A DNA stretch of 64,000 nucleotides from a phage: sequence record PZ540767.1; one strand, written 5' to 3'. A program made the translations under genes and the position numbers. Within the stretch, counting starts at the first letter, position 1; every line of letters starts with the position of its first letter. A model generated the notes under the pieces. The model was not told the origin of the DNA. It worked only from the letters and a program-made list of their open reading frames with translations, and made no database searches. Positions 186-61,174 of this stretch are shown piece by piece.

Positions 186-222
186 TACTGGTTTATTAAA
201 TCAGTTTGCATTAAGCTTAAAG

Positions 223-248: not shown

Positions 249-268
249 TAATTAAAGGTAGGTAAGAA

Positions 269-811: not shown

Positions 812-820
812 GGATAAACC

Positions 821-2050: not shown

Positions 2051-2069
2051 TCGACTGGTATACTATATA

Positions 2070-2093
2070 GGGAGCCTTGTGCTCCCTTTTTTA
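2070..2093 (+). terminator. Intrinsic terminator/attenuator
   Basis: gggagc-cttgt-gctccc hairpin followed by TTTTTT; precedes RBS gaggt and ATG 2107. Confidence 0.6.
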
Positions 2094-2106
2094 TTATGAG
2101 GTCACC

Positions 2107-4854: not shown

Positions 4855-4862
4855 GGTGACTA

Positions 4863-5288
4863 ATGGCTGGATTATCGATGTATCCAAGTCTGTGGGATCA
4901 GGGGTCTATGTCCCCATCTCTAGACTCTCTGAGTTCTGGTTTTACCAACTCAGCAAATACTTTTAACAATACGGCCCTTACTGGTTCAGGTGGTTCAGGT
5001 AGTTTCCTGGATAGTATCCTGGGAGGCTCTGGTGAAATGTCTGGTTTGCAGATGGGCCAGCTTGGTCTGGGGGGTGTAACCAGTTTGCTTAATGGTTATC
5101 TTGGTTTCCAGAACCTGGGCCTTGCTAAGAAACAATACCAGTCTCAGCTTGACCAGTTTAATAAGCAGTGGGATGCCAACAAGAAGTTAACCAATGCTTC
5201 TCTGGCAGACCGTCAGGCTGCTCGTGTTGCAAGTAACCCTAATGCATATCAGTCTGTTGATGACTATATGAAAAAATATGGGATCTAA
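4863..5288 (+). CDS. Gly/Ser-rich small virion-module protein (141 aa)
   Basis: ORF, tight spacing in late operon; GSGGSGSF low-complexity stretch. Confidence 0.55.
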   Translation: MAGLSMYPSLWDQGSMSPSLDSLSSGFTNSANTFNNTALTGSGGSGSFLDSILGGSGEMSGLQMGQLGLGGVTSLLNGYLGFQNLGLAKKQYQSQLDQFNKQWDANKKLTNASLADRQAARVASNPNAYQSVDDYMKKYGI

Positions 5289-5291
5289 ACC

Positions 5292-6368
5292 ATGGCTATT
5301 AGACTGCAACAAATTGCTGCACCTAACTTTGCTGGTTCTAACCAATTACTGCTGGCAGCAAACCAGCAGATTGGTAATGCTCTCCAGGGGCTACAAGGCA
5401 CCCTGGGGCAGTATCGTGATGAAGTAGTACGCCGTAATACAGCTCAGGCTGTAGGACTGCTTACTGGGGCTACAGATGCTAATGATCTGGCCCAGCGTCA
5501 ACAGCAAGTAGCACAGTTGGTTCAGCAAGGGGATATTGACCCCACTCGTGTATCTGAAGTGGCAGCAACCATGCCAGATACTTTGTTAGGACGTCAGACT
5601 AATCAGCTAAAGCTGAACCAGATTCAGACTGCACAGCATGATGCACCATTAATGGGTGCTTATATGCAAGCTGTTATGTCTGGGGATCAGAATGCAGCTA
5701 AAGGTATTTTGTCGCAATTCCAGGGGGATGCTTCAGATGCTCTGAAGTTTGCCTCTGATTGGGATATCAAAAACCAGCAGTTGAATCTTCAACGGTCTGA
5801 ACTGGCACAGCGTCAAGCTCAGTTTGCTGCAACTCAGGCAGCAGCTAAGGCAAGAGCCGGGCAGAGTAATGCACTGCTTAAAGCCTTACCTGGTTTGCTT
5901 AACACAGGTAATGATATTCAGGGGAAGGCTGAAGCCAGGGATTTACAGGCTAATGCTCAGGATGCTCAACAACGTGTTGCTATGGATCCTATAAACAACC
6001 CTAAGCTTAATGTTGCTGGGTGGGCTGATGCTAACAGTGATGTTTGGTTTAGGGGCTGGGGAAGACAGGCAGACTCTGACAGAATTTTTAATGCTCTGAA
6101 GGATCAACCAGCTTTTAAAGCACTTAATCCTCAACAGCAGATAAATATCCTAGACGGTGCCCTTGCTAATGAAAACTCCCGCGAAGATAAGGGAAATGTT
6201 TCTACTGTAAATGCTGCTACTAAGTATCTGACTGATGCAACGAAGCGCTTAAATACCCTGAAGATTACTTCACGGCAAGCAGAGGATGCAAAAGATCAGC
6301 AATCTGTTATGCAAGAGCAAAGGGATCGTTTAAATAAGCTGCTTCTGCCCTTACTTTTCCAACAGTAA
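5292..6368 (+). CDS. Gln/Ala-rich coiled-coil protein (358 aa), virion module
   Basis: ORF; stop overlaps start of the giant ORF (ATGA-type coupling geometry). Confidence 0.6.
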   Translation: MAIRLQQIAAPNFAGSNQLLLAANQQIGNALQGLQGTLGQYRDEVVRRNTAQAVGLLTGATDANDLAQRQQQVAQLVQQGDIDPTRVSEVAATMPDTLLGRQTNQLKLNQIQTAQHDAPLMGAYMQAVMSGDQNAAKGILSQFQGDASDALKFASDWDIKNQQLNLQRSELAQRQAQFAATQAAAKARAGQSNALLKALPGLLNTGNDIQGKAEARDLQANAQDAQQRVAMDPINNPKLNVAGWADANSDVWFRGWGRQADSDRIFNALKDQPAFKALNPQQQINILDGALANENSREDKGNVSTVNAATKYLTDATKRLNTLKITSRQAEDAKDQQSVMQEQRDRLNKLLLPLLFQQ

Positions 6369-15300: not shown

Positions 15301-17050
15301 CAATCCTCATCATGACTTACGTGCGGTTGAGTCGGGGAGTGCAGATGAAGCAGCACTGGTGAACATGGGATACCAAAAAGTATCCCCACTGTCCCAGGAC
15401 TCTTTGTCAAAACACTCTGGACGTGTACTGTATGTGACCAAAGAGAATGGGTATCAACGAACCGTCTCTGGTACTTTCAGTTTAACTGGAAGCCAGCGTA
15501 AAGGTTCTTCCCTAAGTGGGGATCGTGCTGTTGCTGATCGTGTTCGAGCTGACGAGTTAGAACAGTTAAGGCAAGCGTCCTATGCAGACGTGCGAGGGCG
15601 TGAAGCACTGTCCCACACTGCCTTTGATCCTACTCAGATCCAGGATAACCATGTAGTGCCTGTATTAAGCACTGATGGTCATATCATGGACTTCCGTTAC
15701 ATGGCTACCCACAATACTCGTGACACGTTCCTTGATCGTAATAATGACTTTGCTGACCTTGTTGGTCGTCTGGCTGGTCAGAATATCGATAAGGGTGATG
15801 CCCCAAGCCAGAATGCTAAGATCCTGGAAGCTCTGCATGAAGACTCTAAGGCTAATATCCTGAAGAATCCTAATGCTTACTTTGAGATTGGGCCTAATGC
15901 ACCTACTGAGCGAGGACGTGAGATCTGGGCAATGATGCCTTATGAAGCACGTACTAAAGCTACTTCTCTGTGGGGTGCTGATCGTATGTATATTCGAAAC
16001 GATCTGGTTAACCTTACTTTTGGCTTCCGTAAGTATTCACTGGCTAACATTTTTGATGTTGATCCAGAACAGCGTAATATTGCTCAGGGTGTTGCTGCTG
16101 GTTTACTTGAAGCTGCTTTTGGTGATAAGGCTAAAGCTTATGTAATTAAGGGTGAGCGTGGCATTCAGGAATTTATGCAGTCCTATAAGGACGTGATCGT
16201 TATTCGTAACCTGAAAACCCAGTTCAGTAATATTATGTCTAATACTGCTCTACTGGCTGCTTATGGCGTTAACCCGGTACGTATGGTTAAAGATATCCGT
16301 ACTGCTCTGGTTGCTGGGATTGACTACCGTAAACAGTACTCGCTGCTACTCAAGTATCAGCAACAGCAACGTGCTGGTATTGGTAACTTTGCTCAGATGG
16401 AGTCCCTGATCAATGAGACGCAGGATCGCTTGAATGCTAACCCTCTGGCTAAGTTTATTCAGGCAGGTATGATGCCTACCATCGTAGAAGACGTTCAGCC
16501 TGATGCTGATGGTTACACTTATGGTTCTAAGATCCGTAAGAAATTTAATGAGGTATCTGCCCATCTGCCAGCTTCTGCTGTAACAGCTGCTCGCTGGGCT
16601 GTGATTGATAAAGGTACTGCACCTCATAAATTCTTAAGTGATGCTGCTCAGTTCAGTGACTTTGCTGCTAAGTATGCTCTGTATAAGCACCTGACAGAAC
16701 ATGCCCGAGATCGCCTGAGTCATACTGAGGCTTTACAACGTGCATCTGATGCTTTTGTTAACTATGACATTCCAGCTACAGCTACTCGCCAATATCTGGA
16801 TGATATGGGGATTACCATGTTTACGAAGTATCGTGTTCGTATCCAACGTGCAATGTTCTACTTGATGGATAAACGTCCAGCATCTGTTATGGCACATATG
16901 GCAATTACAGGGCAGTTTACTCATGCACCTGATGCTATGGAGCCACTGTTTGCACGTAACTTAGGTAACCCATTCACACCTTCAGTATTGCAGGGTGGGA
17001 GTTTGTTGAATGTCCCAATGCCTTGGAACTTATTCAGAATGGCATACTAA
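6368..17050 (+). CDS. Giant virion-associated RNA polymerase (vRNAP-like, 3560 aa)
   Basis: Single uninterrupted 10.7-kb ORF; size class matches N4 vRNAP (~3500 aa); sits at the end of the structural operon; followed by a strong terminator. Confidence 0.8.
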   Translation: MRLQSGYSTILRNTQMAGNSSPLDKFLVPQQVTGQEAAQALPAPTQPTIAQRVNDASTRILNNLTGQGMYPTEEGEIARLKRINNEQSAYAKEVAAKDSDYGWSSTNFLDPETSSLTDRTASTFVNYGKALTDAVNGLAGKTDKTFKTLGNVLDQASIPNDALDAYRRVQAGKGTEADNALLDRQGAWWTQPIEVNQYGVPEMGNQTLRQRLDAINERQKTQNQSSYDNLEKLANPVQMQQAAADIEKSIEGKSGLDKFAAGLAAIARNPGAAGQTMVESAPYMVGGIPGMLASSAMQGGSVLSQYLDTQRKASDGQIPTAKDVAIGTGLGVVDGALNFAESIINRTAMLPGSKVLPAGVADRLVNAAQRIAPRSSTAAAALARVTAPTLDLAKNALTEGLVSGAQNQIEENYAKGKNEWDTKGNDVAFFQGIAAATGFGAPRAALSTAGEVANTAAQAMQKRTEAQDPVGQAARNTTPEDLMNPQSEGYNPAAAIRRAGMEWTRNTDATTDEQKAEIQSQAQSAMDAAQNDHQNNLDMINQRATAERTLADAGKFIPAIQERLDQLSNDPNADPDAVNQLQTILAQQTEARDAAQQQLDAMPSQEELAQSATRSAEVLDQAKSEFGKFSSATGMNTNTAKPENPTASDIISHPMSYTNEDLQEFVRNAPANATPAELGTLRALADAKVAENAVKTGSKVNSEIFKSTSNNLSLGDYQQGINTAVQAGDTNRIQSLMTGINNFETSHTAKADIAQQYLNEAKQNGKSYQILKTSNGWELNTGKRLDAKAQAKNGGFTIHKGSTGLVNNIVNEAKAITATRQYMEGIATPSTNQNVTGSTEQVASPEAQPEGAATVAGETGAQEQQAQPTISPLTTRDIRAMDQATLEKVMATTQQAMSSDTNPVLARNLDALDREWTRRADVATNQNRGVDAPHRKLDDSFKPKAQENEIQRSQAETTTQTEHTQADIDNESTGSESQQTAPVNVDDVVTNTDTLTETQQDNVAHGALSIFGKVGESLKALREKALAEPKGLQNLVLTGFNQRVRPGFGSPLVAVKDFINTLKTAVDTGSFTEVNRFLKQHISESKAEGAKQKALLKQFVEFHDHITANLDNIIRTKAPEYRYQDFAQFILDENGNFDSNTKTGIAAGIFSWLGENGDKMFLNQSEVAKTLRIKEDQLTPQAMSRMADIGYRQDLIMSQLGQRIYQAMGFAKRADVDPNRASKLQNALGAYALHAMYSNGYMEQSLMTAKEYFDLQTMGLDEQSAKEAAQAFQNDFGVSPNDAKHKIVFSRPARNFDAEGKPVAIEAISDIKNGMKDTRSLMSKLFGYDPAVREVLTTKPAGFKQKVFGKMNREVPSVLAARISKAMQYDYTIDQGVVNAMRTMSTVDNAALQHIFGVRTDADVPNEMEIFKKGREAKNADIQRSMEMGLDFANRRGTNPFWMPMEVWTNQRIGDLASEFNPQGSKVHRAMGGLSAHQVEISVARNAPVLDADGKPTQYGLFLVSLAQGMEEAPVIGADGKKLKSVDKQTYATFLPAFQNYLRKPENIKAVRAMQKVIAGSATTADTNVIKNAVAEYGMNGQSFAALHNLAQYATALESGKSSVKLLAQMESDGVTNGPILTNILNGSADFDLLKRGGIYREGDNITNMPTYRELGGQDYYELLGDAMRQHWADYKTNAPASQQGQIQALEYFSTGYGARSKAKTLATPFNYSAGIPALKAAMGRATVEDVYSKIGSLIPLAKSNNKADFAKAYAEVSKNLSVLLGQKVNLPRTADGLVKFSLNPAQTKRIIDVDSQTRGVATETAVNEVAADFIASRDANTSLVNTTFTLANLRYNAAKAALLKKRIAEGKIPVDAKGAPLEGLTQADLDKLSRMIPNMPSATGVLSENTKASGYPMAKVEKAFTAKSPATSIDIYFKEAANPKPAMDANGMLLSQGLVGGYKSTQSTVTETKLTNPGVAMGANVTQGTDAAISSDVISKIESQNVHDANILSPDNVLKGARIQNKAMFDAVVSYHPQHLAASALLTEVRSLAGANLSTNDKVAAKKALEAMKTKILGKDFKGNMKAALNTILNQAYDRDIKKLETLSEVYAVNQYGTEGGEYLITDTDRKKIGDEIARLKRSRAAGLQRISAMFSKGNAPKAEANQYPDKMRQYLYEASASTGSVSASEVMARTKGKFANPVYNELHNLISGLIPADAVVNVLDGQTMPKNVKGQSLPQNRDAIAWSYQDKNTAQVNLSLSKEASPEVLLHELTHIALGRAIATADSNPKVKAVLARTEKLMGRVTKLVSADPQLTQKFAPALANVDEFISWGMTNPEFQRYLDTITGVPEISGRNRGWLGTAFKQFVDQMSGIFAAVTGRAINARVTTALEALTFDTAHLVQAINPTAIESPVSSISHPMSNTNSAADQVAKFSHVDIFDNLASTGGKTNSAQFTGNLRNVISTVADQLYGALGSRVTQNANENYTPGQVWNEAVATGKAPVSTEALSNGFVLTNQEAFAVEAIEAAVSESLASGFTSPVNREIRRTWQAAKQSLKPEDFHNGNWNQATQAEKRAAQQKWNYLFDVTNDSGESQHLSRFVAMAIGHEDTSNLLGFQMEDGKDSGNTAFEQATAYFNQAVNTVSGMLTNTHQGQAANARAQALAEKLIQIELKNRDTTMNILTGGIDKVENALDTAAAKSKQFLGKIVKATGIDQSSNNALNAMGKVAGLAARDQLGSLKETIKEFRDFNAPSTPEGSLASILTEATNADDVRALHESLLRSTKRIEQDRATLAAVTAKNLNEMFDNNGQDLTKEDRTAMTYSLLRTDLQSVLHIEGMNLNNLHKLVSNTGYRKQQINNLEKTISQYANGNDKIIRAKALGFWMATGRNTLGRDLVLNAKAIATGAATHYSTVGIEPTLDEVNAIDALASMYALSYTKTENRVRTAAVMERELARGKDNGIKMLMATYANLIEDSANTLFAGNQLSRIKGYLPEDTNPHHDLRAVESGSADEAALVNMGYQKVSPLSQDSLSKHSGRVLYVTKENGYQRTVSGTFSLTGSQRKGSSLSGDRAVADRVRADELEQLRQASYADVRGREALSHTAFDPTQIQDNHVVPVLSTDGHIMDFRYMATHNTRDTFLDRNNDFADLVGRLAGQNIDKGDAPSQNAKILEALHEDSKANILKNPNAYFEIGPNAPTERGREIWAMMPYEARTKATSLWGADRMYIRNDLVNLTFGFRKYSLANIFDVDPEQRNIAQGVAAGLLEAAFGDKAKAYVIKGERGIQEFMQSYKDVIVIRNLKTQFSNIMSNTALLAAYGVNPVRMVKDIRTALVAGIDYRKQYSLLLKYQQQQRAGIGNFAQMESLINETQDRLNANPLAKFIQAGMMPTIVEDVQPDADGYTYGSKIRKKFNEVSAHLPASAVTAARWAVIDKGTAPHKFLSDAAQFSDFAAKYALYKHLTEHARDRLSHTEALQRASDAFVNYDIPATATRQYLDDMGITMFTKYRVRIQRAMFYLMDKRPASVMAHMAITGQFTHAPDAMEPLFARNLGNPFTPSVLQGGSLLNVPMPWNLFRMAY

Positions 17051-23107: not shown

Positions 23108-24082
23108 TTATACTTCGAGATGACCAGAACGAATTAGCTCATCTTTTTGTTTACAGATTGGAAAGGCTGGGCAGTATGCACAAGCTTTAACTTGACCAGG
23201 GTTATGTACGATCATACCCACGTTGCCATCGTCAGCTAGACGCTTATAAGCTTCAGCCTCAGTGTCAAAGTTTTTGGTTGATCGGGTCATGTTTGCCGGG
23301 TTCTTGTAGTACTTCCAGACCGGAGCATCACGCCATAACTCTTCATCGGTACATTCAGGAATGTCTTCGTCTTTGGCCTGTTTATATTTCTCATACAGGG
23401 CAATACGACCTTCAACATACTTCTGAGTTTCTTCCAGAGAGAGCAACTGATAACGCTTGGTTTCAGTCTTTCGCTGTGGGTAGTTAGGGTTAGCTCTGGC
23501 TTGAGCACGTTGCCAGTCAGTAAAGATAAACTGGATAGACATTACATCTTTAGTAATGATATCCGGGTTAAGCCAGCGATAGATACTACCTTGCAGGGCA
23601 TAGTCCAGATCCTTACTACCCTTCATATAGCTGAAGGTTGAGGTGGACTTAAAGTCCTCTAAGGCACCATTACCTACAAAGTCAAACTTACCAGTAACAC
23701 GGTAACCCATGACTTCTTTCTCAGATCGGATTTCCATATACACTGGGATATCCCCAGCCTTCAATTCCCATGGTTTAGGGTTCACCTTAACCTTGGCAAT
23801 CAGATCAGGTGAGTAACCTAGCTTCTCCATAGCTTTAGGGAAGTTTTCCGGTGACCAAGCCAGCTCAATACCCGAGTGAATAGCTGTACCCATACGAGAC
23901 GCTACCAGGTCTTCCAGGTCAGCTGTTTGCAGCTCTGGAGGAACACGGGGAGTCAGTATCAACTGACGAATAGGCTTCAGCAGTTTGGTTGCTGAGAAGG
24001 TTCCAGGGATATAATCGTAATGATCAGTAGCCAGGAACACTGCCATAGATAATGGGATCTTAGTGTTGTTTGTGTAAATCAT
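23108..24082 (-). CDS. PD-(D/E)xK nuclease with C-terminal Cys cluster (Cas4/RecB-like exonuclease)
   Basis: C-terminal 'CAYCPAFPIC' cluster; track start is GTG 24091, first ATG at 24082. Confidence 0.45.
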   Translation of the reverse strand: MIYTNNTKIPLSMAVFLATDHYDYIPGTFSATKLLKPIRQLILTPRVPPELQTADLEDLVASRMGTAIHSGIELAWSPENFPKAMEKLGYSPDLIAKVKVNPKPWELKAGDIPVYMEIRSEKEVMGYRVTGKFDFVGNGALEDFKSTSTFSYMKGSKDLDYALQGSIYRWLNPDIITKDVMSIQFIFTDWQRAQARANPNYPQRKTETKRYQLLSLEETQKYVEGRIALYEKYKQAKDEDIPECTDEELWRDAPVWKYYKNPANMTRSTKNFDTEAEAYKRLADDGNVGMIVHNPGQVKACAYCPAFPICKQKDELIRSGHLEV

Positions 24083-24193
24083 AACAACCACCCAGTAAGG
24101 TTTGTGATCAGTTTAGCTACACCAAAGTACATGAAGAAACCTGCTGTAGCTCCCCAGGCTGCAAATGCTGCAAACACAAAGGTAGACATTAAC

Positions 24194-24661
24194 TTACTTA
24201 GCATTGGCTGATTCCTCGCCCCATAAGGCTGCATATGCTGCCAGATCTTCAAAGTTATCCAGCTTAAATTCACCCTGGTTTGCACGGACAATTTTCAGTA
24301 GGACTTGAATGAGCCACCCATCAGCCGGGGTAAGATCCTTACCACGAATCTTATTGAACAGCTCAATGACCAGTGGAATGGAACGTTCACCTTCTGCATT
24401 ATCATAGGTAACTGCACGATCCTCTAAATGCCCAGCAGCAGCCAGTAGTACCTTGTGGGCACTGACTGTTGTATCTACTGGTTTAGGTTTAAGATCTTCA
24501 AGCTGTGCCTTTAGGTCAGTTATAGCTTGCTCATACTTTTTAACCTGGTTTCCCCAGTAAACTTTTTTATGCTCTGCACAAGACATACCTAAGTAGTTCT
24601 TAGCCTCATGCAGACACTTTTCTGCATAAGCAAGAGAGCGTTTTAATGATCTTTTACTCAT
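24194..24661 (-). CDS. Hypothetical protein (155 aa)
   Basis: Internal ATG 24661 preceded by aaggaaa RBS and a GC hairpin. Confidence 0.5.
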   Translation of the reverse strand: MSKRSLKRSLAYAEKCLHEAKNYLGMSCAEHKKVYWGNQVKKYEQAITDLKAQLEDLKPKPVDTTVSAHKVLLAAAGHLEDRAVTYDNAEGERSIPLVIELFNKIRGKDLTPADGWLIQVLLKIVRANQGEFKLDNFEDLAAYAALWGEESANAK

Positions 24662-24718
24662 TTGGATTTCCTTTGCAAAGAATTCACAGAGTGCCCGGAA
24701 GGGCACCCCACAAAACAC

Positions 24719-26449
24719 TTAAGCCTGACAGCTTAAGCATTCATCCTTAACAACCACACCACTTCGTGAGTAGACGTAGTAAACAGACAGGATTTCTTCA
24801 TCCAGTACACAACGAGTCATCAACTCTGAGATCAGATCTTCTGATCCATCTTCAGGTACGAAGAAGTTCAGGGACTGACCTTGGCAGATATGTTTCTGAC
24901 GTAAGCTGGCACGACGTAACAGGACTCGCTGATCCATTTCAAAGGCAGTCTTAAATACCTGCTTCTCGTGGTCATCAAGCCAGTCAACGTGTTGTACTGA
25001 GCCTACATGGTTAATGATATCGTTGATGGTTTCTGCTGAGTACACTCCACGTTCCTGCATGAGTTTGTAAATCTCAGGCACGATACGACTGAGCTGCCCA
25101 GCAGCAGAGCTGGCTTCAAATACCATTCCAGGATCCGGGAACCAGGATTCAGATACACCACCCATTAACAGGGCTGTGCTCTTGGTAGGTGCAATGGCTG
25201 TACGGTGAGTATTACGTACACCATGACCTTCACACCATTCTGGTTCACCCATGACTTCTGCCATCCACTGAGAAGCTTTGAGGCTTTCATCATGGATATG
25301 CTTGAAGATCTCTTGGTCGATAAATTGAGCTTCCAGTGACTCGTAGGGAATACGCTTCGATTGGAAATAGGTACTGAGTCCCATTACACCTAAGCCAATT
25401 GCTCGGCCTTTGATGGTAAAGTCTCGTACTTTTTCTAAGCCCTCAATACCATCACTAACTTCGATGAACTCTGAGCACAAGCAGTCCAGGAAAATAGTGG
25501 AATAGAATACTGCTTTGCTGGTTTTAATCTTATCCCAGTGAACCAGGTTCAATGAGGACAGAATACAGCTATAGGTCAGATCCTTGGATGAATGCAGCAT
25601 GATTTCGGTACACAGATTGCTTGCCTTAAGCATCAGGTCACGGTCTTTGTACATTGCAGGACGATGGCGGTTAGCCTTGTCTATGAAGTACAGATAACCC
25701 TTACCTGTCAGCATTTTGACATGCACAGCATCTTCGAATCGCTGGTTTGCTTCTGCATCACCAGCTTTCAGTTTCTCAACGAAACTATCTTTAATGATCC
25801 AGCCATAGTTCTTACCATTAGGATCGGTCTTCAGTGAGTTAAGGCACTCATAGAAATCCCCATGCTCGATATCGAGATAGGCACCAACAGAACCACGTCT
25901 GTTACCTCCCTGGCTTACCTTGCTGGTACAAGTGAAGAAGTCATCAATAACTTCCTTAGCACCATTAGCAATGCCACCAGTGCTGATCTTGGCACCACGA
26001 GGTCGGATATCCGAGAAGTCTGCTGAAGTACCAAATCCATATTTGGACAGGATTGCAGTCTCTCGTAAGGCTGAGTAGAAGCCATCAATGCTATCTGCCA
26101 CTACCTGCCCAGAGCAGGACACAGGCATACCACGATCGGTTCCTGTATTAGCCAGTGCTGGTGTAGCGGGTGACAAGATGCCATTCCACATAAGATCGAA
26201 GAATGCTTTTTCAAGTTCACCACGATAAAGCTGTGGTACATGACGTGCCAGAGTGTGTGCAATCTTCTGGTGACGTGCTCTTAATGAGCCTTCACTCTCG
26301 ACGATGTACTTACTCTTGAACATTTGCCATGCTTGAGTTGTATACCAATCAGGGAGTAATCCCTGTGCTTGTAACTTCTTACGCTCGGCACTAAGTGCTT
26401 CGAACTCAGTAGCGACTGAAGTTTCTACTCCTGTAGGTTTAAACGACAT
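24719..26449 (-). CDS. nrdA: Ribonucleotide reductase large subunit-like
   Basis: 'SNLCTEIML' active-site Cys motif; C-terminal CxxC (CLSCQA); adjacent to NrdB-like gene. Confidence 0.55.
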   Translation of the reverse strand: MSFKPTGVETSVATEFEALSAERKKLQAQGLLPDWYTTQAWQMFKSKYIVESEGSLRARHQKIAHTLARHVPQLYRGELEKAFFDLMWNGILSPATPALANTGTDRGMPVSCSGQVVADSIDGFYSALRETAILSKYGFGTSADFSDIRPRGAKISTGGIANGAKEVIDDFFTCTSKVSQGGNRRGSVGAYLDIEHGDFYECLNSLKTDPNGKNYGWIIKDSFVEKLKAGDAEANQRFEDAVHVKMLTGKGYLYFIDKANRHRPAMYKDRDLMLKASNLCTEIMLHSSKDLTYSCILSSLNLVHWDKIKTSKAVFYSTIFLDCLCSEFIEVSDGIEGLEKVRDFTIKGRAIGLGVMGLSTYFQSKRIPYESLEAQFIDQEIFKHIHDESLKASQWMAEVMGEPEWCEGHGVRNTHRTAIAPTKSTALLMGGVSESWFPDPGMVFEASSAAGQLSRIVPEIYKLMQERGVYSAETINDIINHVGSVQHVDWLDDHEKQVFKTAFEMDQRVLLRRASLRQKHICQGQSLNFFVPEDGSEDLISELMTRCVLDEEILSVYYVYSRSGVVVKDECLSCQA

Positions 26450-51417: not shown

Positions 51418-51736
51418 CTGTTTTGCGATTCCTTAAACCAGGGATTGTGTAGGCTTTGGAGATATACTCCCCAATATAGAAATACTCATGAATTTCACTT
51501 TCAATCATTCGTACTTCAGAGCCTGCATCAGTCAGTACGGTGTAACAGGGTTCTGGCTTAAAGTCGGCAATGCTCATTGTGGATCCGATTTTGGTAATGA
51601 AAGCATTACCTAACCGACGTCCATCTTTTGTGCATAGCTGACGATGTAATTCCAGAGTCCCGGACGGATCGTAACGTTCAGCCCAGTCAGGCAGGACTTC
51701 ACGTTTAAACTGTTCGTCATACTCTTCGTCTGTCAT
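51410..51736 (-). CDS. Hypothetical protein (108 aa)
   Basis: ORF with ATG; stop overlaps next start. Confidence 0.45.
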   Translation of the reverse strand: MTDEEYDEQFKREVLPDWAERYDPSGTLELHRQLCTKDGRRLGNAFITKIGSTMSIADFKPEPCYTVLTDAGSEVRMIESEIHEYFYIGEYISKAYTIPGLRNRKTDE

Positions 51737-52098
51737 GAAGCCTCCTTTAAAGCTTTGTCACGACGCTTACAGTTTTCTTTCTGGCTTACCATTTCCAGAT
51801 GTGCAGGGTTACAGCACAAGCGATTACGACACTTATGGTCTATCTGCTTCTTGGATGGGATATAGCCATAGAAGTGGGTATATACAACGAGGTGAGTAGC
51901 TACAGTCTGGCTATTGAGACTCATACGCCCATAGCCTCCACCACGTCCAGTCCCTGAATCAGGGCCAGTCCATATGAAGCAAGGGCTAGGTAAGCCTTCA
52001 AGTTTAAAGCCCAGATCTCTGATATCTACTCGTTCGAATACACGCTGGAGTATTTCTTCCCTACGATTGGGAAGTTCCTCCAGTATCTTGTCGAGCAT
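51733..52098 (-). CDS. HNH endonuclease
   Basis: 'QIDHKCRNRLCCNPAHLEMVSQKEN' HNH/zinc motif. Confidence 0.65.
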   Translation of the reverse strand: MLDKILEELPNRREEILQRVFERVDIRDLGFKLEGLPSPCFIWTGPDSGTGRGGGYGRMSLNSQTVATHLVVYTHFYGYIPSKKQIDHKCRNRLCCNPAHLEMVSQKENCKRRDKALKEAS

Positions 52099-52962: not shown

Positions 52963-53625
52963 TCAAAAAGTCCCCCACACTTTAGGGTTGATCAAATACT
53001 GTTCCCAGACCTTATCGAAATAGCAATTGTCTGGGGCATTTTTGAACATAGGAGCAATGTCGCTGTCTTTTAAGCCAGCAAGACCACACCCCACACGAGT
53101 GACCATGAAGTTCAGTTCACCATGTTCCCGTGCATAAGCCAGGAAGGTATCCACATACTCATGGATCACTTGACCACGTAGGGTGCGTAAGCCAGGAGAC
53201 TTAGTGGGCAGAGCGTAGCTATTGCCATAGTGACCATGACCTTTACCCAGTACAGCACCATAGAGCTGTAGGGCTGTTTTAGCAGCACCAGCACCGTGGA
53301 TACCTGCTTCATTGGACCCGAATACGAATACCATTGGTTTGCCTTCAAGGCAGCGTTGAATAGTCACTTCGACTGTCTCCATTGGAAGAGTTTCACGGTG
53401 AGGTTTACTTCGGTACACCTCAATACCATCTTCCCAGTGCATACCCCATTTACCTTGTCGCCATAGAGTTAATGCCTGTGAAGCATTCCGTTTAGCTAAT
53501 AACAGGCGAGGTGATCCTCTGAACCCTGGTTCATGCTTGGTATAAGAATTACTCTGGCTTATGGATCGGCATTCAGGAAGGTAGGCATGGGTTTCAGGAT
53601 CACGATTGATCCACCATGTCTTCAT
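52963..53625 (-). CDS. Hypothetical protein with Gly-rich motif (220 aa)
   Basis: 'VFVFGSNEAGIHGAGAAKTALQLYGAVLGKGHG' looks like a conserved nucleotide-binding-type loop; family not recognised. Confidence 0.5.
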   Translation of the reverse strand: MKTWWINRDPETHAYLPECRSISQSNSYTKHEPGFRGSPRLLLAKRNASQALTLWRQGKWGMHWEDGIEVYRSKPHRETLPMETVEVTIQRCLEGKPMVFVFGSNEAGIHGAGAAKTALQLYGAVLGKGHGHYGNSYALPTKSPGLRTLRGQVIHEYVDTFLAYAREHGELNFMVTRVGCGLAGLKDSDIAPMFKNAPDNCYFDKVWEQYLINPKVWGTF

Positions 53626-54157: not shown

Positions 54158-54412
54158 AGGAGCCTCTTTAGGATATAGGTTAAGACTGTCTTAAACCCCG
54201 TTAGCCTATAGGTTACTTTAGTCAAAATGGGGATTTTTGGTAAATTTAGAATATAGGTTGAAAGCGTACTAGTAGTACTAAGAAGTACTACCAGAACACT
54301 CTGAACTACTAAAAATGAGGGGAGACTAGCTCCCCTGCCAAAGGCATAGATAAGAATTAAGTGATGGTAATGAGTCGAGCGACTCACAGAAGTGACCGGA
54401 GGTCACAAAGGC

Positions 54413-54697
54413 TTAAGCCCACTTCAGCATATACTTGTGGAAGTTGTCAGCAGTAATGCCACACAAGATGATATGTGCTGTACCTACTCCTCCTTTCTGC
54501 TTACCGAGAAACTCAATACCTTTTGAGACATCAGTTATGGCTTGAACACCACTGGCATCGACTGTGCCTTTGGTTGGGTAATACATGAGTTTACCAGCCC
54601 AAAATACTGATTTAACTGCTACATGCCCTTGAGTAGGCACTTCTGCTGTAAAACCAGGGAATTTATTGATGAAATCTGCTGCTTCAGATGCGTTCAT
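54413..54697 (-). CDS. Hypothetical protein (94 aa)
   Basis: ATG after agagga RBS. Confidence 0.45.
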   Translation of the reverse strand: MNASEAADFINKFPGFTAEVPTQGHVAVKSVFWAGKLMYYPTKGTVDASGVQAITDVSKGIEFLGKQKGGVGTAHIILCGITADNFHKYMLKWA

Positions 54698-54748
54698 AAG
54701 ATCCTCTTTACCGTTGATGGAAACACTCGCAAAGATGCCCGGAGGGCA

Positions 54749-55156
54749 TCAACGCTTAGTATTATCGCTATATATTTTATTGAAGAAGTTAAAAGCATCA
54801 GCGATATCAGATGTACTTTTAGGTTCCTGAATAGACCGATCATAGATAAATTGTTTAGGGTTGTTTATTTCCTGTCTTCTGAGCACTTCCTCTAGCATCT
54901 TACGTTGAAAATCTTTCATAGAGTTGTACACAGGTTGCTCCTCATTGCCTGGTTTCCAGTAGATCCAGCCTAATGGGGCAGACTCTAAGTCCATTTCAAT
55001 TCCTGGGATGGAATTTTTATGAATGACTTCAAATTGCCCTTCTACTGCTGCTATGACAGTAACTGGTTTCAGCTCCAGTTCTTGTATGCCTATGGCATTA
55101 GCTGTTTTGATTCTCTTAACAGTGCCCCTTGGCACCATGTATTTTATTGTGTCCAT
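54749..55156 (-). CDS. Paralogue 3 of 'KxIKTxxAIG' family (135 aa)
   Basis: N-terminal 'GTVKRIKTANAIGIQELELKP'; first ATG 55156. Confidence 0.5.
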   Translation of the reverse strand: MDTIKYMVPRGTVKRIKTANAIGIQELELKPVTVIAAVEGQFEVIHKNSIPGIEMDLESAPLGWIYWKPGNEEQPVYNSMKDFQRKMLEEVLRRQEINNPKQFIYDRSIQEPKSTSDIADAFNFFNKIYSDNTKR

Positions 55157-55392
55157 ATTGCAGTCCACTTTTTAAAGATAGTTGGCACATCAGATACTAG
55201 TTCAACCCTTGTCATGGTTTGCCAGACTTGGATCCCTTTGGGTAAATCAGCTTTGAAATAGAGTCCCATTTTACAGTTAGAAGGTACTTCAATTTCTGTT
55301 CTGGTTAACCCTATAGCTTTGCTGGTTTTGATCAGTTTAAACAGGGATTCCGGGAATAAAGCTTGGGTATCACCTACCCCTGTTATGGCCAT
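55144..55392 (-). CDS. Paralogue 2 of 'KLIKTxxAIGL' family (82 aa)
   Basis: 'LFKLIKTSKAIGLTRTEIEVP'. Confidence 0.5.
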   Translation of the reverse strand: MAITGVGDTQALFPESLFKLIKTSKAIGLTRTEIEVPSNCKMGLYFKADLPKGIQVWQTMTRVELVSDVPTIFKKWTAIWTQ

Positions 55393-55604
55393 TTAGCCTC
55401 CCATATGATCATGTTAGTTTTCATGCTCCTGTGAGCACTACAATGGGTTCCTGGGGGTACACCTTGAGGTACTGTAGGATTCGTTGGATCATCATAGGGA
55501 ATTTCCAATCGTGCTTCTTTAAGCCCAATAGCTGCTCTGGTTTTGATTAACTTAACCAGCTCTAGTGGTACATACCGCGCATTGGGGGTGTTGAAATTAG
55601 CCAT
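55383..55604 (-). CDS. Paralogue 1 of 'KLIKTxxAIGL' family (73 aa)
   Basis: 'LVKLIKTRAAIGLKEARLEIP'; ATG 55604 after gagga RBS. Confidence 0.5.
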   Translation of the reverse strand: MANFNTPNARYVPLELVKLIKTRAAIGLKEARLEIPYDDPTNPTVPQGVPPGTHCSAHRSMKTNMIIWEAKWP

Positions 55605-55610: not shown

Positions 55611-55642
55611 CCTCAAAAAATAAACCTACCCCGAAGGGTAGG
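55611..55642 (-). terminator. C(UUCG)G tetraloop intrinsic terminator after RNAP II genes
   Basis: On - strand: 7-bp stem cctaccc/gggtagg with UUCG loop followed by UUUAUUUUUU. Confidence 0.6.
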
Positions 55643-55649
55643 TGTTTGG

Positions 55650-56924
55650 TTAGCTTAATGCATAGTTGGAACCACGGATTTTATCTCCGAGGTTGTTAGA
55701 CAGTTTGGTATATACCCCATCAGTGCTTCCATACAGCTGGTTCATCAGGGATTGCAGAATGGTGCTATCAGCGAATTCTGCCAGCATCTCTTTGTACCAG
55801 TACCGTACTTCATTACAGTTGTTTGGATGGGAACCAAAGGCATCGTGAACAGTAGCCACAGGGAATGGTTTGTAGGTCAGCATGAAGTTAACTTTACGCA
55901 TTACATCACGAGCTAAGTCGATAGGTAACTGCATGTAGTTGCTCCAGTTGATATCGTTGAGAATAACCATAGAAGACTGCTTATTCTCATTCCACAGACG
56001 GATACGACGTACCATATCACCAGTAGCTTCTTCAGCCTGCATACCCATGCTATTAGCCAGCAGACGTGCTTCCAGCATCTTCTGCACCTCTGCTACCAGT
56101 TCTGGATCGTAGTTGCACAGACGCTCCAGCTCACGCAGCAGATAGGCATCACAGCAGTGAATGGTATTGGCTACGTTAGCTCGGCCTTTCTCTGTACCCC
56201 GGTTCTCTTTGTATTCCATGGTGAAAGTAGCGTGATCAAGCTCATCTACTTCAATTCTGGTTTCCAGAGTTTCCATGACTTTCATCTTAGCGATGAAGCC
56301 ATCAGGCAGCTCCAGAACGTGTTCCAGAGCATACGGACGCCAGGAACCCAGGAGTTCATCCATGAGGTTGAACGCACCAGGAGCGATGATGTGGGCTGCT
56401 TCGTAGAAGTAGTCCAGCATCTCGCCCTCACCGAATACCTTCTTAGGCACAGCCTTAGAACCGTAACCAGAGGTCATTACAGCTTGTTTGATATGGCTAC
56501 GAGGTACTTGGATACTATCCAGACCTTTACGCTTCAGAACGCCATTCATGGCGTCTGTAGTGTTGCTGTAGGCATCCATACGCTTCTCTGGGTCAATACA
56601 ACCAGTGTTGTATGCACCTCTCTCACAGCCTGTGAGGGCACTCATAATCTGAATTCCAGAGCAGCAACCATCCCAGTAGGTGATGTTGCCTACAGCTTCC
56701 CCACGCTGTACACGACGTAAAGTCATAACAGCTTTGTGGTACAGCTCAGGGGTTTCAGCATCTTGAACCTTAGATTCCAGATCCTTGATGTTGTCGTATA
56801 CCCACTGAATACGTTCTTCGAACAGTTTCTTGTCCAGACCGTAATAGTTGGCTACGTCGATGCACATGTATTCCCAACCAGACATATATTTGAAGTTTGG
56901 GCCATAAGCGGTGTTGATTACCAT
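55650..56924 (-). CDS. Phage RNA polymerase II, large (catalytic) subunit; T7-like single-subunit RNAP C-terminal half
   Basis: 'DGCCSGIQIMSALTG' (T7 RNAP motif A-like DGSCSGIQ) and 'VHDAFGSHP' (motif C-like HDSFG). Confidence 0.85.
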   Translation of the reverse strand: MVINTAYGPNFKYMSGWEYMCIDVANYYGLDKKLFEERIQWVYDNIKDLESKVQDAETPELYHKAVMTLRRVQRGEAVGNITYWDGCCSGIQIMSALTGCERGAYNTGCIDPEKRMDAYSNTTDAMNGVLKRKGLDSIQVPRSHIKQAVMTSGYGSKAVPKKVFGEGEMLDYFYEAAHIIAPGAFNLMDELLGSWRPYALEHVLELPDGFIAKMKVMETLETRIEVDELDHATFTMEYKENRGTEKGRANVANTIHCCDAYLLRELERLCNYDPELVAEVQKMLEARLLANSMGMQAEEATGDMVRRIRLWNENKQSSMVILNDINWSNYMQLPIDLARDVMRKVNFMLTYKPFPVATVHDAFGSHPNNCNEVRYWYKEMLAEFADSTILQSLMNQLYGSTDGVYTKLSNNLGDKIRGSNYALS

Positions 56925-56941: not shown

Positions 56942-57949
56942 TTAAAGTTTAAATTCATCAGGCACACCAGTTACTTGCTCTTTATTGGCAAAGTTTAAAC
57001 TGGCTTTCTTGAAGGGAGTGCCTTGAAGGTTGATGTGATAACCCTGGGTATACAGACGTCCACGTTTGTCAGGTTTATTGCCAAAGTAGAACTTATTACC
57101 CTGGTTTACCATCAGGCTATAGAAGTAGTACGACTGACGTTTGTAACGCATCCAGTTGTCTTTCTGTTTACGTACCAGATCAGCCTTCTCCCACGGTGTG
57201 AGAGGTTTCTTACGGTGTTTCTGGAGCTTCTCTTCATCGATCTCATTGAGATCAAATGTAGGTTCTTCTTCGTAGTTACAGAGGAATTCTACGTCCAGAG
57301 AGTAAGGCACAGCATTACGGCTGTTGATTACATCCAGACAGATATCCTCATTATGGTGATTGAATGATCCCCCTAGAATAAGGCTATCAGATGAATAAGT
57401 AAGGTAAGGAGTATCCATGTTATGGGTAAGCTTCTTGGGTGGGCAAACCAGTGGTGGTAGATAACACGAACGCTCAATGAATTGAGCCAACTGGTCAGGC
57501 AACCCAATATTGCTAACGATATACAGAGATGCTTTAGGATGAGGCTTGTTAATGTCATATACATCAGTATCCGTAAGGACAGCAACGATTTCAGCCATAG
57601 TCTGAATGCTGTCACGTTTATCATCGAAACCCAGTCTGGAAGCCAGCTGGCCTACTACGTTGACCATTGGAGTAGGTTCAGGGAAATACATAATTCCCAC
57701 GAACACTTCTTTCACAATAGCTTCCAGATCAAGGGATTTGAGGTGGTTAAGGCGTACAGCTTTAGAGTCGTAATACTCACCCTCAAGCCACTGGTTTAAC
57801 AGAGATACACCCTGTTCTACCTTGTCTAACAGGTTGCAATCAGGGTCTTCAAACAGCTCTTTACGGATATAACCATCAATATGTTTCCTGTTGAACTGAC
57901 GTTCATTGATGGCCTGAAGTTCCTCAACTGGTAACCATTTATGCTGCAT
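56942..57949 (-). CDS. Phage RNA polymerase II, small subunit (N-terminal half of split T7-like RNAP)
   Basis: Immediately upstream of catalytic subunit in same orientation; 335 aa; N4 gp15/gp16-like split arrangement. Confidence 0.65.
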   Translation of the reverse strand: MQHKWLPVEELQAINERQFNRKHIDGYIRKELFEDPDCNLLDKVEQGVSLLNQWLEGEYYDSKAVRLNHLKSLDLEAIVKEVFVGIMYFPEPTPMVNVVGQLASRLGFDDKRDSIQTMAEIVAVLTDTDVYDINKPHPKASLYIVSNIGLPDQLAQFIERSCYLPPLVCPPKKLTHNMDTPYLTYSSDSLILGGSFNHHNEDICLDVINSRNAVPYSLDVEFLCNYEEEPTFDLNEIDEEKLQKHRKKPLTPWEKADLVRKQKDNWMRYKRQSYYFYSLMVNQGNKFYFGNKPDKRGRLYTQGYHINLQGTPFKKASLNFANKEQVTGVPDEFKL

Positions 57950-58251
57950 TAGTTAGTTCCTCGTATTACTCGTAATTGCCATTCACAGCCAGGTTCATTG
58001 ATCCTGTTAGCTATTATTCTTGGTTTAGAACTGGCTATTCCTTCAGGGAAGTAACCAGTATTAATCATGTACTCACTGTTGGTTTTATATTTACCCAACA
58101 CCCCTGGAAGCCTGAGTAAAGGTTCCTCAATGCCCAGCATATATTGGGTACGTAGCTGTTTAATCCATGACTCTTCAAGGACGATATAAACATGTCCATC
58201 AAAGCCAGCAGTAATGCTCTTGCCTACAAGGGCTTCCCATGAATCATTCAA
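57949..58251 (-). CDS. Hypothetical early protein (100 aa), TTG start
   Basis: No in-frame ATG near 5' end; gggag RBS 8 nt upstream of TTG. Confidence 0.4.
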   Translation of the reverse strand: MNDSWEALVGKSITAGFDGHVYIVLEESWIKQLRTQYMLGIEEPLLRLPGVLGKYKTNSEYMINTGYFPEGIASSKPRIIANRINEPGCEWQLRVIRGTN

Positions 58252-58594
58252 GATAGAACTCCCATACGTCTTTGTTGATGTACTTGGCAGATACCCAGAT
58301 ACTCTGGTTTATTAGCACATTGGGCATTGGGTATTTAGGTAGCTGCTCACCATTACAGGTGATCATCTTGTTCAGTCTAAATTCCTTTAATCCCAGTGCT
58401 TTACGCATGAGTATCTGCTTAACCAGAGTCTTAGTGATAAGTACACAGAGACTGCTATTACTGCCTTTGCTGGCAATATGGGTAGAGGTATCAGTATCCT
58501 GAAACTCTTTAATACTCCAACGATATCTGGAGCCTCGTCTACGTGATTTAGCTTCATTACCCCAACGATCATTCCAGTTCTTTTCTTTAGCCAT
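58244..58594 (-). CDS. Hypothetical early basic protein (116 aa)
   Basis: ATG after gagga RBS. Confidence 0.45.
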   Translation of the reverse strand: MAKEKNWNDRWGNEAKSRRRGSRYRWSIKEFQDTDTSTHIASKGSNSSLCVLITKTLVKQILMRKALGLKEFRLNKMITCNGEQLPKYPMPNVLINQSIWVSAKYINKDVWEFYLE

Positions 58595-58640
58595 GGTATA
58601 TCCTCAATTAAATAGCCCAGCACTAGGCTGGGCATATGAA

Positions 58641-58931
58641 TTACAGTTCGAAGTTTTCGAGTGCCTTGGCATCACCGAAGGTGACTGACAGACGCTCTCC
58701 CAGAGCCTCTACGCCGTGCTCACGAATGAAGGCCAGTACTGCACCTTCAACCGGGTGATCTTCACGCAGAGCGATGCCACGGCCACCCTGACCCAGGCGA
58801 CGAACCTGACCGTCACGGCCTTTGACGCCGATGTTCAGATAGCCACCAATGTTACGCTCAACAGGAGCAGCAGCATTGTTAGCAGAGGAATTGGAAGTGT
58901 TGTTTGCAGCAGTGTTTTTCTGATAAGCCAT
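58641..58931 (-). CDS. Early protein (96 aa), first gene after a hairpin promoter; possible RNAP II cofactor by position only
   Basis: ATG 58931 (MAYQKN...) after gaggt RBS; Asn/Ala-rich N-terminus, Gly/Arg-rich core. Confidence 0.45.
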   Translation of the reverse strand: MAYQKNTAANNTSNSSANNAAAPVERNIGGYLNIGVKGRDGQVRRLGQGGRGIALREDHPVEGAVLAFIREHGVEALGERLSVTFGDAKALENFEL

Positions 58932-58992
58932 GATAAATACCTCGATAGTTAATATGAAATGAAGAACGAACAGGCAGGATTGCCTTTGCATT

Positions 58993-59275: not shown

Positions 59276-59565
59276 GAGAATGAGATCCGTTGTTCAAGGA
59301 TAACTGGGACTCCAATGGCTACTTTAGCCATCAGAGCTTTAATTTCACGCATATCTACTTTGATAGTGAAGTTCTTTTTATAAAAACCATCTAGCGAAGC
59401 TGGGAAGTCTACCACTGCAATACGTGGAAACTTCTCCAGTGCTACATTGAATTTGGTAATAGTGATAGTGGCATTAATGCCAATGTTGAAGTCACTATAA
59501 TAAGATATAGTACCTTCACCCAGCATCTTAGAATGCCAGTTAAATACTTGGTTAGAATTGGTCAT
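59272..59565 (-). CDS. Hypothetical early protein (97 aa)
   Basis: ATG after ggaga RBS. Confidence 0.4.
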   Translation of the reverse strand: MTNSNQVFNWHSKMLGEGTISYYSDFNIGINATITITKFNVALEKFPRIAVVDFPASLDGFYKKNFTIKVDMREIKALMAKVAIGVPVILEQRISFS

Positions 59566-59806
59566 CGTCTAGTTTCTCCAGACACAGATACTGACCTTTG
59601 CTCATAATTGCATAGTCAATACCATTAAGAGTTAGATAGTCTTCAGTCCCCAGATTTCTGCTACCATCACGCATCTTGTTCTGTAGTCTTATGTCCTCTG
59701 GTTTAATACCAATGGCTAGTTTAGTTTGAATAGTTTTAGCTTCAGCTTCATCTACCCTAACCATCAATGAGGGATGAATATCCCCAAATACAGCATAGTA
59801 GCTCAT
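59552..59806 (-). CDS. Hypothetical early protein (84 aa)
   Basis: ATG; acidic. Confidence 0.4.
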   Translation of the reverse strand: MSYYAVFGDIHPSLMVRVDEAEAKTIQTKLAIGIKPEDIRLQNKMRDGSRNLGTEDYLTLNGIDYAIMSKGQYLCLEKLDDDQF

Positions 59807-59939: not shown

Positions 59940-60278
59940 TTATACCTTGGGTAAGTTTTGGATGCTTCCAGCATTACTTGACCAACGCCCACTAACTACG
60001 CCATGGAGCCTCTCTTTAGGTACATACTTCTTAAATTCCCACATACCATTTTTATTAAGGAATACATCAAATCCCATAAACATTTCATCAGCATGACCAC
60101 GATTGGTAGAAGTATGTTTTTGGTTTTTACGTTTAATACGAGAACCATCAATACAGTACCCATCAAGGGTACAGCCAATGGCTAAAGCCATCTTTACTTT
60201 CTTGAGCCATGCATCAGTAACACGGATATGAATACACTTTTGCATAGCAGGTGCATAGACATAGATTATTTTACTCAT
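59940..60278 (-). CDS. Hypothetical early protein (112 aa)
   Basis: ATG; downstream of hairpin promoter instance 2. Confidence 0.45.
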   Translation of the reverse strand: MSKIIYVYAPAMQKCIHIRVTDAWLKKVKMALAIGCTLDGYCIDGSRIKRKNQKHTSTNRGHADEMFMGFDVFLNKNGMWEFKKYVPKERLHGVVSGRWSSNAGSIQNLPKV

Positions 60279-60344: not shown

Positions 60345-60566
60345 TCATTTATTGTCCTGTGGACAATATACCTCCCAATCTGTCCATTTTTGAGCTAGGA
60401 AGCCTTCTACAGTATCTGTGATAGTATGGCCATCAAGAAATCTTACAAGTATTATACTATCCTGGGACAATGTTATATAAGAACCACTATCCCATACTGA
60501 TCTTTTTATCTTAGCCCCTAGTTTCAGCATTAATAATGCTTCTTTAGCAGTCATATAATGTACCAT
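60345..60566 (-). CDS. DUF2829/Tad2-like small protein, copy 1
   Basis: N-terminus 'MTAKEALLMLKLGAKIKRSVW'. Confidence 0.5.
   Translation of the reverse strand: MVHYMTAKEALLMLKLGAKIKRSVWDSGSYITLSQDSIILVRFLDGHTITDTVEGFLAQKWTDWEVYCPQDNK
60350..60368 (-). promoter_or_regulatory. Hairpin promoter candidate, instance 2
   Basis: + strand ataTTCATTtattgtcc-TGT-ggacaata; overlaps 3' end of the preceding small ORF; ~75 nt upstream of ATG 60278. Confidence 0.5.
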
Positions 60567-60742
60567 TCATGTGATTCATCGAAGAATGAACAGAATTCAG
60601 ATACTTTAATAAGCCCAGGTGGGATAGTGTTATCACAACATACATTATCCCCTTTGATATAATAAAAGAGTTCTGGTTTCATCCAGTCAGCTCTGATCTT
60701 ACATCCGATCTTCATTGCTAACAGGGCTTCCTGAGTCGTCAT
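60551..60742 (-). CDS. DUF2829/Tad2-like small protein, copy 2
   Basis: Start at internal ATG 60742: 'MTTQEALLAMKIGCKIRADW'. Confidence 0.5.
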   Translation of the reverse strand: MTTQEALLAMKIGCKIRADWMKPELFYYIKGDNVCCDNTIPPGLIKVSEFCSFFDESHEWYII

Positions 60743-60938
60743 ATAATTTCCACTCCATATCTGCATATTCTTCAGTAAACTTATTAACAGCACAGGCTAG
60801 ACTGACAAAGTTTAATGGTTTATGTACATAGCAAATACAGTTGCCTTGTAAATCATAATAGTTAGTATAATCAGTCCAGGTAGCAGGAATAACCTTGCAA
60901 CCTATTTTCATTGCAAGCAATGCTTCAGCTGTTGTCAT
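60699..60938 (-). CDS. DUF2829/Tad2-like small protein, copy 3
   Basis: 'MTTAEALLAMKIGCKVIPATW'. Confidence 0.5.
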   Translation of the reverse strand: MTTAEALLAMKIGCKVIPATWTDYTNYYDLQGNCICYVHKPLNFVSLACAVNKFTEEYADMEWKLYDDSGSPVSNEDRM

Positions 60939-61128
60939 TGAATAACTCCCAATTATCTACGTCACCATAACAAGGTATATAGTCTTCAAGTACCAAATGG
61001 GGAGTACCATCTTCATTAACTGTTATATCATCTATAGGATCATATTGTACCCAATCACCTGGTGCCCATGTTTCCCTTCGTACTTTGCATCCTAGTTTAA
61101 GAGCTAGTACTGCTTCTTTGGTTTTCAT
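60925..61128 (-). CDS. DUF2829/Tad2-like small protein, copy 4
   Basis: Start at internal ATG 61128: 'MKTKEAVLALKLGCKVRRETW'. Confidence 0.5.
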   Translation of the reverse strand: MKTKEAVLALKLGCKVRRETWAPGDWVQYDPIDDITVNEDGTPHLVLEDYIPCYGDVDNWELFNDNS

Positions 61129-61174
61129 CCCCTGTCTCCAGTAGACCGATTCACAAGAGTGTTCGGAGAACACG

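Follow-up and report, generated by a model that had tools for sequence, protein, structure and literature searches.

Transcription of the middle genes of N4-like phages is carried out by a phage RNA polymerase II (RNAPII), itself an early product, together with the cofactors gp1 and gp2 (PMC4496689). N4 gp2 and LUZ7 Drc are small, early, clade-restricted ORFans near the RNAPII genes (PMC4496689, PMC7145618), and in coliphage N4 the slot behind gp16 holds further non-core, lineage-specific genes (gp17–gp20, annotated as Hoc-like, superinfection exclusion, membrane protein and lipoprotein). Here, a stretch of 64,000 nt from sequence record PZ540767.1 (the window), which covers the greater part of an N4-like Klebsiella phage genome (Schitoviridae, Efbeekayvirus), was analysed with respect to three small genes, A, B and C, that lie directly downstream of its RNAPII genes. 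In the kind of slot they occupy and in being small early ORFans they resemble these N4 and LUZ7 genes; their products are unrelated to gp17–gp20. A, B and C are real protein-coding genes whose products share an N-terminal element kept under protein-level selection, and the remainders of the proteins and whole alleles are replaced rapidly via divergence and recombination.

The three open reading frames (ORFs) are on the minus strand, as are the early and middle genes of the phage, and were found where an earlier note on this DNA had placed them, with the peptide segments quoted there exact:

55383–55604, minus strand: gene A, 73 aa, ATG at 55604 behind GAGG, shared segment at aa 13–34 (nt 55503–55568)
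55144–55392, minus strand: gene B, 82 aa, ATG at 55392 behind GGGAGG, shared segment at aa 14–35 (nt 55288–55353)
54749–55156, minus strand: gene C, 135 aa, ATG at 55156, shared segment at aa 9–30 (nt 55067–55132)

The shared segment follows the pattern 'P..hhK.IKT..AIGh....h' within residues ~10–40, at the same N-terminal position in A, B and C. Pairwise BLASTP gave 6e-7 for A/B, 2e-4 for A/C and 1e-3 for B/C, and when each paralogue was searched with phmmer against the 967 six-frame ORFs of the window, its best non-self matches were the other two. Orthologue alignments were produced from 8–15 related genomes and compared using hhalign, giving 96% for A–B (E 4e-9), 61–79% for A–C and 13–14% for B–C, with a background for A, B and C of ≤1.3% across 22 neighbouring gene families without such a segment; profile support is graded, being strong for A–B, moderate for A–C and weak for B–C. 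By these three methods the genes are paralogues through their N-terminal segment, as the earlier note had proposed. Only ~22–40 residues could be aligned, and the remainder of A, B and C was not alignable; by eye, a W-x-A-x-W string (A, B) or a W-I-Y-W string (C) was seen near residue 65–80. Past the shared segment, the gene A product has a variable Pro-rich middle and then a conserved C-terminus, IIWEAKWP, and the gene C product has an additional C-terminal part, predicted to be helical.

Within each orthologue set, motif codons showed fewer amino-acid changes than the other codons (0.32–0.68 versus 0.74–1.19 extra residue types per codon) with synonymous variants at least as many (0.82–0.95 versus 0.63–0.86), so that the constraint on the motif acts on the protein, not on DNA or RNA. 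Between paralogues, different codons are used for 40–65% of identical residues and the longest common nucleotide run is 11 nt, which argues against recent gene conversion; since about half of the identical residues differ in codon, the duplication is old. The shared element is predicted to form a short strand, an amphipathic helix ('hhK.IKT..A'), a turn at an invariant Gly and another strand. An AlphaFold model of gene B (predicted local distance difference test score, pLDDT, 65) had a strand at residues 10–14, a helix at 15–22 and five further strands, and that of gene C (pLDDT 41, poor) had the order strand-helix-strands followed by three helices; alignment depth for structure prediction was limited by a word-indexed protein search that missed most relatives of A and B. 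These low-confidence models of B and C share the order strand, helix, strands, which suggests a common fold, with which both are compatible.

Selection and identity were compared across 15 genomes. The ratio of nonsynonymous to synonymous divergence (dN/dS) was 0.28 for A, 0.33 for B and 0.22 for C, versus 0.06–0.08 for RNAPII, with dN of A–C 10–20-fold and dS 2–4-fold higher than for RNAPII; given the raised dS, much of this fast evolution is whole-allele replacement by recombination. Protein identity was 95–100% for RNAPII, 59–97% for A, 39–88% for B and 76–95% for C. Gene B is hypervariable, falling into three allele classes that are 40–70% identical, with dS ~1 separating the classes, in genomes otherwise 92–94% identical; the allele in the window stands at dS ~1 from most others and is rare among isolates, and metagenome versions of it were found at 86–89% identity. 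Individual family members can be lost, and gene C is truncated in phage Halo_KS_7 and a deletion joins B to the end of C in three P0123-bearing contigs, the longest of 76.6 kb. With dN this far above that of RNAPII, three B allele classes and gene loss, the suggestion of a diversifying family made in the earlier note holds.

The 3.6 kb surrounding the cassette is 92–94% identical to Klebsiella phages GADU21, FBKp27, P184 and relatives (Schitoviridae, genus Efbeekayvirus), and its immediate neighbours in the window, in the direction of transcription, are:

56942–57949, minus strand: RNAPII small subunit (RNAPII-S), N4 gp15-like (phrog_2166, 3.1e-110)
55650–56924, minus strand: RNAPII large subunit (RNAPII-L), N4 gp16-like (PF00940, 2.8e-18; phrog_2051, 1.5e-137)
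55624–55643, minus strand: hairpin with T-run, intrinsic terminator between RNAPII-L and gene A, 8-bp GC-rich stem and TTCG loop
54734–54750, minus strand: hairpin GATGCCC-TCC-GGGCATC, overlapping the stop of gene C and dividing C from the next gene
54413–54697, minus strand: gene X94, 94 aa, last gene ahead of a strong terminator at 54318–54336

Gene A starts 45 nt past the RNAPII-L stop with the 55624–55643 hairpin in between, in agreement with the location directly after the RNAPII genes and a terminator given in the earlier note. The annotations of FBKp27 and Halo_KS_7 mark this hairpin as a terminator, and in contig L016 its stem has changed in a compensatory way (ACCTACCC/GGGTAGGT to ACCTATCC/GGATAGGT); a middle promoter for gene A, if any, would have to overlap it. 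The hairpin at 54734–54750, with its weak T-run, was not flagged by the terminator scan. Genes A and B overlap by 10 nt and B and C by 13 nt, and A and B have good Shine-Dalgarno sites; because of the overlapping stop and start codons, these sites and the flanking terminators at 55624–55643 and 54318–54336, A–B–C form a translationally coupled block in a short transcription unit that then continues into X94. The shared motif is absent from X94, which gave ≤0.3% with A, B and C in hhalign; it exists in two allele classes (~48–50% identity between classes), and the allele classes of A, B and X94 assort independently. The small-gene region on the minus strand is punctuated by GC-rich hairpins at 58615–58633, 55624–55643, 54734–54750 and 54318–54336 (stems 7–8 bp, loops 3–5 nt). 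In their geometry, these four fit intrinsic terminators and also resemble the hairpin-type middle promoters of LUZ7, which have a stem of at least 6 bp, a 3–4-nt loop and a start ~15 nt downstream (PMC9163698).

Further members were sought among the ORFs of the window. Membership in the family, defined here as a clade-specific 'KT..hhG' small-protein family, was assigned to small ORFs of the early/middle region with the shared N-terminal segment in the same position and significant by profile-profile comparison, and on this basis includes A, B, C and D. The ORFs concerned, together with a candidate cofactor gene located among them, are:

57949–58251: ORF E, pattern seen by eye, not statistically secured (hhalign ≤2.5%)
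58244–58594, minus strand: gene D, probable fourth member, 116 aa, segment at aa ~53–79 (LITKTLVKQILMRKALGLKEFRLNK), upstream of RNAPII
58641–58991, minus strand: candidate Drc-like RNAPII cofactor ORF (phrog_6271, 'toxin', 1.3e-9, and the GADU21 annotation of its positional counterpart)
59552–59806, minus strand: gene G, possible distant member, 84 aa (EAKTIQTKLAIGIKPEDIRL)
59940–60278: ORF H, pattern seen by eye, not statistically secured (hhalign ≤2.5%)

A hidden Markov model (HMM) of the motif built from A, B and C alone found D at E 0.011–0.022 among the 967 window ORFs, with the next match at E>4, and hhalign gave 81% for A–D and 30% for B–D; D was found in only about half of the related genomes. 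Gene G, at 18% with B and 13% with A in hhalign and at E 6–13 with the HMM, is not statistically secured. The pattern seen by eye in E, G and H is K at −9, T/M at −5, A/M at −2, I/L at −1 and G at 0. A leave-family-out motif HMM gave E 0.08 for G and recovered B at 2e-5 without A–D in training; its training segments were chosen and anchored by eye, which biases it, and the un-anchored hhalign comparisons and the rank test with the A/B/C-only HMM were preferred. For G, H and E, as for the ORFs of Cbunavirus, SABI and MIF8 described below, the evidence of family membership is suggestive.

The ORF at 58641–58991 has a probable start at MAYQKN, giving 96 aa. In GADU21, the ORF in the matching position is labelled a single-stranded DNA (ssDNA)-binding RNA polymerase (RNAP) cofactor; no similarity to N4 gp2 was detectable, and phmmer gave no match to solved structures at E≤1. 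Gene D was considered as a gp2/Drc-like cofactor and rejected, since gene order and spacing match the GADU21 'ssDNA binding RNAP cofactor' to 58641–58991; GADU21 has no D orthologue.

Similar cassettes were found in sister phages. Cbunavirus EK8 (Escherichia), CB3 and Horatius (both Pectobacterium), and Enterobacter phage SABI carry two to three abutting ORFs of ~81 aa directly after RNAPII-L, and in Erwinia phage MIF8 a single ORF of this kind (gp20) lies further downstream, past larger inserted ORFs; each of these ORFs has a similar strand-helix-Gly segment. The Cbunavirus/SABI cassette resembles A–C in its post-RNAPII-L slot, in its consecutive abutting small genes (EK8 24060–24798), all annotated 'hypothetical protein', and in its segment, a strand and then 'h..h[KR][TA]..hhGh....h.h.P' at residues ~15–45, but none of its ORFs taken singly matches A, B or C significantly, and one-to-one orthology is not assignable. 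When ranked using the A/B/C-only HMM, the position-defined cassette ORFs came out much higher than the remaining 570 ORFs (Mann-Whitney p 7e-6), and hhalign across genera gave 22% for Cb2–A, 55% for Cb1–ORF E and 93% for Cb3–MIF8 gp20. Orthologues of D lie directly upstream of RNAPII-S in MIF8 (E 1.7e-9) and SABI (E 1.6e-6). The cassettes of the sister genera are probably homologous to the A–C cassette; equally uncharacterised, they extend the distribution of the family, not its function.

Beyond these genera, the motif HMM gave no match at E<1 in the first 16 kb of prototype N4 (234 ORFs), and homology to gp2/Drc was likewise not detected in N4 1–16000 (gp2 included) at E<1, either with the full-family motif HMM (A–D and candidate members) or with the A–D HMM. 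Searching 50,697 phage records by tblastn with A, B and C returned the same 13 records only, all of Klebsiella phages in or near Efbeekayvirus, in which gene A orthologues are 63–97% identical, and a motif pattern scan of IMG/VR gave seven confirmed loci, each located on a contig of ~76 kb. When 1.84 billion representatives were searched exhaustively with HMMER, the B profile matched two B clusters and one further protein, P0126, and a metagenome protein search returned more than 120 gene C clusters at 90% identity, with more than 100 near-complete contigs; with an A+B+C concatenated query, only C clusters were among the matches listed (best 120). Among N4-like phages, the family is restricted to the Efbeekayvirus/Cbunavirus branch. 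P0126, a metagenome protein of 449 aa (B profile E 3.6e-5), was considered as a family member and judged a repeat-inflated chance match; it is composed of seven ~63-aa tandem repeats starting 'MKVTGNLFE.KMRPEQVFRLMKA'. P0124, in which residues 1–30 of A are joined to an unrelated tail, was considered as a case of module shuffling and is probably a mis-assembly, its 876-bp contig turning to GC-rich unrelated DNA past codon 30.

Known domains and folds were searched for in parallel. Scans of A–D against Pfam, PHROGs, NCBIfam and PADLOC gave nothing credible, with no Pfam match to A–C at E≤1, including Ribosomal_L12 and ClpS; profile searches of the PDB using the A, B and motif alignment profiles gave no ribosomal or ClpS chain at E≤10, and fold searches gave no match. 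The AbrB/MazE looped-hinge helix, considered from the strand-P-helix-G pattern, was rejected after comparison with an alignment of four sequences (AbrB, Abh, SpoVT, MazE), which gave ≤2.6% in hhalign for all families, with no Pfam match; the Pro-to-Gly spacing in the A–C family is ~6 residues longer than in AbrB.

These searches bear most directly on the proposal of the earlier note that the shared segment is a helix like that of the L7/L12 C-terminal domain (CTD) or ClpS, under which the proteins would be ribosome/GTPase or Clp protease adaptors. The likeness lies in an 18-residue stretch of gene A, 'hhK......GLKEA+', gapless against RplL 69–86, and hhalign of family A with Escherichia coli RplL does choose the register that had been proposed (LVKLIKTRAAIGLKEARL / VIKAVRGATGLGLKEAKD), at 33% identity across 18 residues. 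That alignment scored 3.7%, however, and family B 0.1%; 'GLKEA+' is peculiar to A and not conserved in B, C or D, the low-confidence model of B has a mostly beta topology, with one helix and strands, and neither the Pfam and PDB profile searches nor the fold search that had been suggested as a check returned a match. An L7/L12 or ClpS relationship is hardly credible on this evidence, and the analogy can be dropped. That the three ORFs are unrelated and their common string is due to chance, or to convergence on a generic amphipathic helix plus glycine, is also very improbable. The match is short (22–40 aa), B–C taken alone is weak by hhalign and BLASTP (13–14%, 1e-3), and look-alike strings below significance can be seen by eye in other small ORFs (E, G, H); against this stand the A–B and A–C values (96%, E 4e-9, and 61–79%) over a background of ≤1.3% in 22 other families, the same N-terminal position of the segment in three adjacent overlapping genes, the lack of a motif HMM match at E<1 among the 234 N4 ORFs, and a motif more conserved than the remainder in every orthologue set.

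It is unlikely, in our judgement, that A–C are transcription accessory factors, the polymerase-binding idea of the earlier note, which would bind RNAPII or the Drc-like ssDNA-binding cofactor through their shared N-terminal element and thereby modulate the early-to-middle switch. The family does flank the RNAPII genes, since A–C follow them directly and D precedes them (in MIF8 and SABI, the D orthologues adjoin RNAPII-S on its upstream side), and the post-RNAPII-L cassette position is kept in sister genera, but whole-genome synteny is generally conserved among N4-like phages, so that position by itself is weak evidence. No co-variation was seen, RNAPII being 95–100% identical while B alleles are only 39–46% identical, C and D are dispensable in natural genomes, and no family member was found in the first 16 kb of prototype N4. 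Compared with gp2 and Drc, A–C are multi-copy, hypervariable and partly dispensable and show no sequence similarity, and a separate candidate for the cofactor role is present at 58641–58991, to which A–C are not similar (hhalign below the 1.3% background). In favour of such a role, a promoter-melting protein 'X', as yet unidentified, and a poorly understood gp1 still figure in the literature on N4 (PMC4496689); Drc homologues have, however, been assigned by PSI-BLAST in sister CB1-like phages, and Drc is reported to need no melting cofactor (PMC7145618). There is a small chance that the genes belong to an expanded superfamily with four secured and up to ~seven copies per genome, built on one strand-helix-Gly docking module with swapped specificity parts and a single common partner. 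Its cassettes would be homologous on both RNAPII sides across Efbeekayvirus, Cbunavirus and relatives, its partner could be either a single hub protein of the host or the RNAPII/Drc transcription complex, and, if true, it would amount to a modular adaptor in control of host shut-off or of the early-to-middle switch. We give about even odds to the remaining explanation, that A, B, C and probably D are tandem duplicates of one small gene whose products would be accessory effectors in host interaction. The conserved element would then be a structural core, or a common docking or oligomerisation surface, with specificity carried by the variable parts, and the proteins would be non-essential early/middle effectors that bind host components (for take-over or counter-defence) and not parts of the transcription machinery. 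An accessory host-interaction role is supported by the early region holding four Tad2-like genes, and by the N4 slot holding accessory genes, one of them annotated as superinfection exclusion. Several points weigh against this explanation. No function-bearing homologue, domain or fold was found, and the host-interaction role comes from context; the structure models are weak (pLDDT 65 and 41) and suggest a common fold at most; and the Cbunavirus cassette links are individually non-significant (best HMM E 1.8; hhalign 22% for Cb2–A). Fast evolution that is largely allele replacement by recombination does not require an arms race, HNH homing endonucleases beside the cassette in some relatives could drive such replacement, and a functional connection with transcription could account for family members lying on either side of RNAPII in several genera.

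As tandem accessory duplicates, A–D would constitute a new, uncharacterised family of a familiar sort, the fast-evolving small accessory genes of phage early regions. Isolation of Efbeekayvirus phages for Klebsiella pneumoniae therapy is under way, and about half of their early genes are unannotated; several 'hypothetical proteins' are now grouped as one clade-specific family, with constrained and replaceable parts of the proteins told apart. Gene B stands out as a hotspot of allele swapping, which might follow differences in host or defence among phages otherwise 92–94% identical. If the family targets a host function or defence system, it would be a new class of small-protein inhibitors; binding to RNAPII, if it occurs, would instead be relevant to the way N4-like phages establish middle transcription.

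A second tandem paralogue array of the early region lies at 60345–61173 (minus strand), where four consecutive overlapping small genes (T1–T4) share the string 'T.EALLAMK.GCK.R..W' and gave 91–99.8% among themselves in hhalign. One of them scored above the gathering threshold of PF11195 (Tad2-like, for Thoeris anti-defence 2-like; 27.8 versus 25 bits) and two below it. The array is like A–D in comprising tandem small paralogous early genes of the same phage, and its domain is named for an anti-defence protein. Kinship between the two arrays, prompted by an FBKp27 ORF with 'VKELKTALAIGCKIR', was rejected, since hhalign of A–D with T1–T4 gave ≤0.5% and A–C lack PF11195.

Downstream of the cassette, and conserved in relatives, are a 220-aa protein of unknown function at 52963–53625 (minus strand; phrog_2072, 7e-48) and an HNH endonuclease-like ORF at 51733–52098 (minus strand). 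The junctions of the RNAPII genes are insertion sites in relatives, and the window has none of the insertions concerned. Between RNAPII-L and the terminator, L016 has an HNH endonuclease-like ORF (3–425), and GADU21 and BM327-1.1 have a 441-bp ORF at the same junction (L002 4251–4691, L005 4251–4691); in FBKp27, BM327-1.2 and P184, the two RNAPII subunits are separated by ORFs of 195–234 bp (L001 5422–5655, L004 5636–5863, L006 4217–4411).

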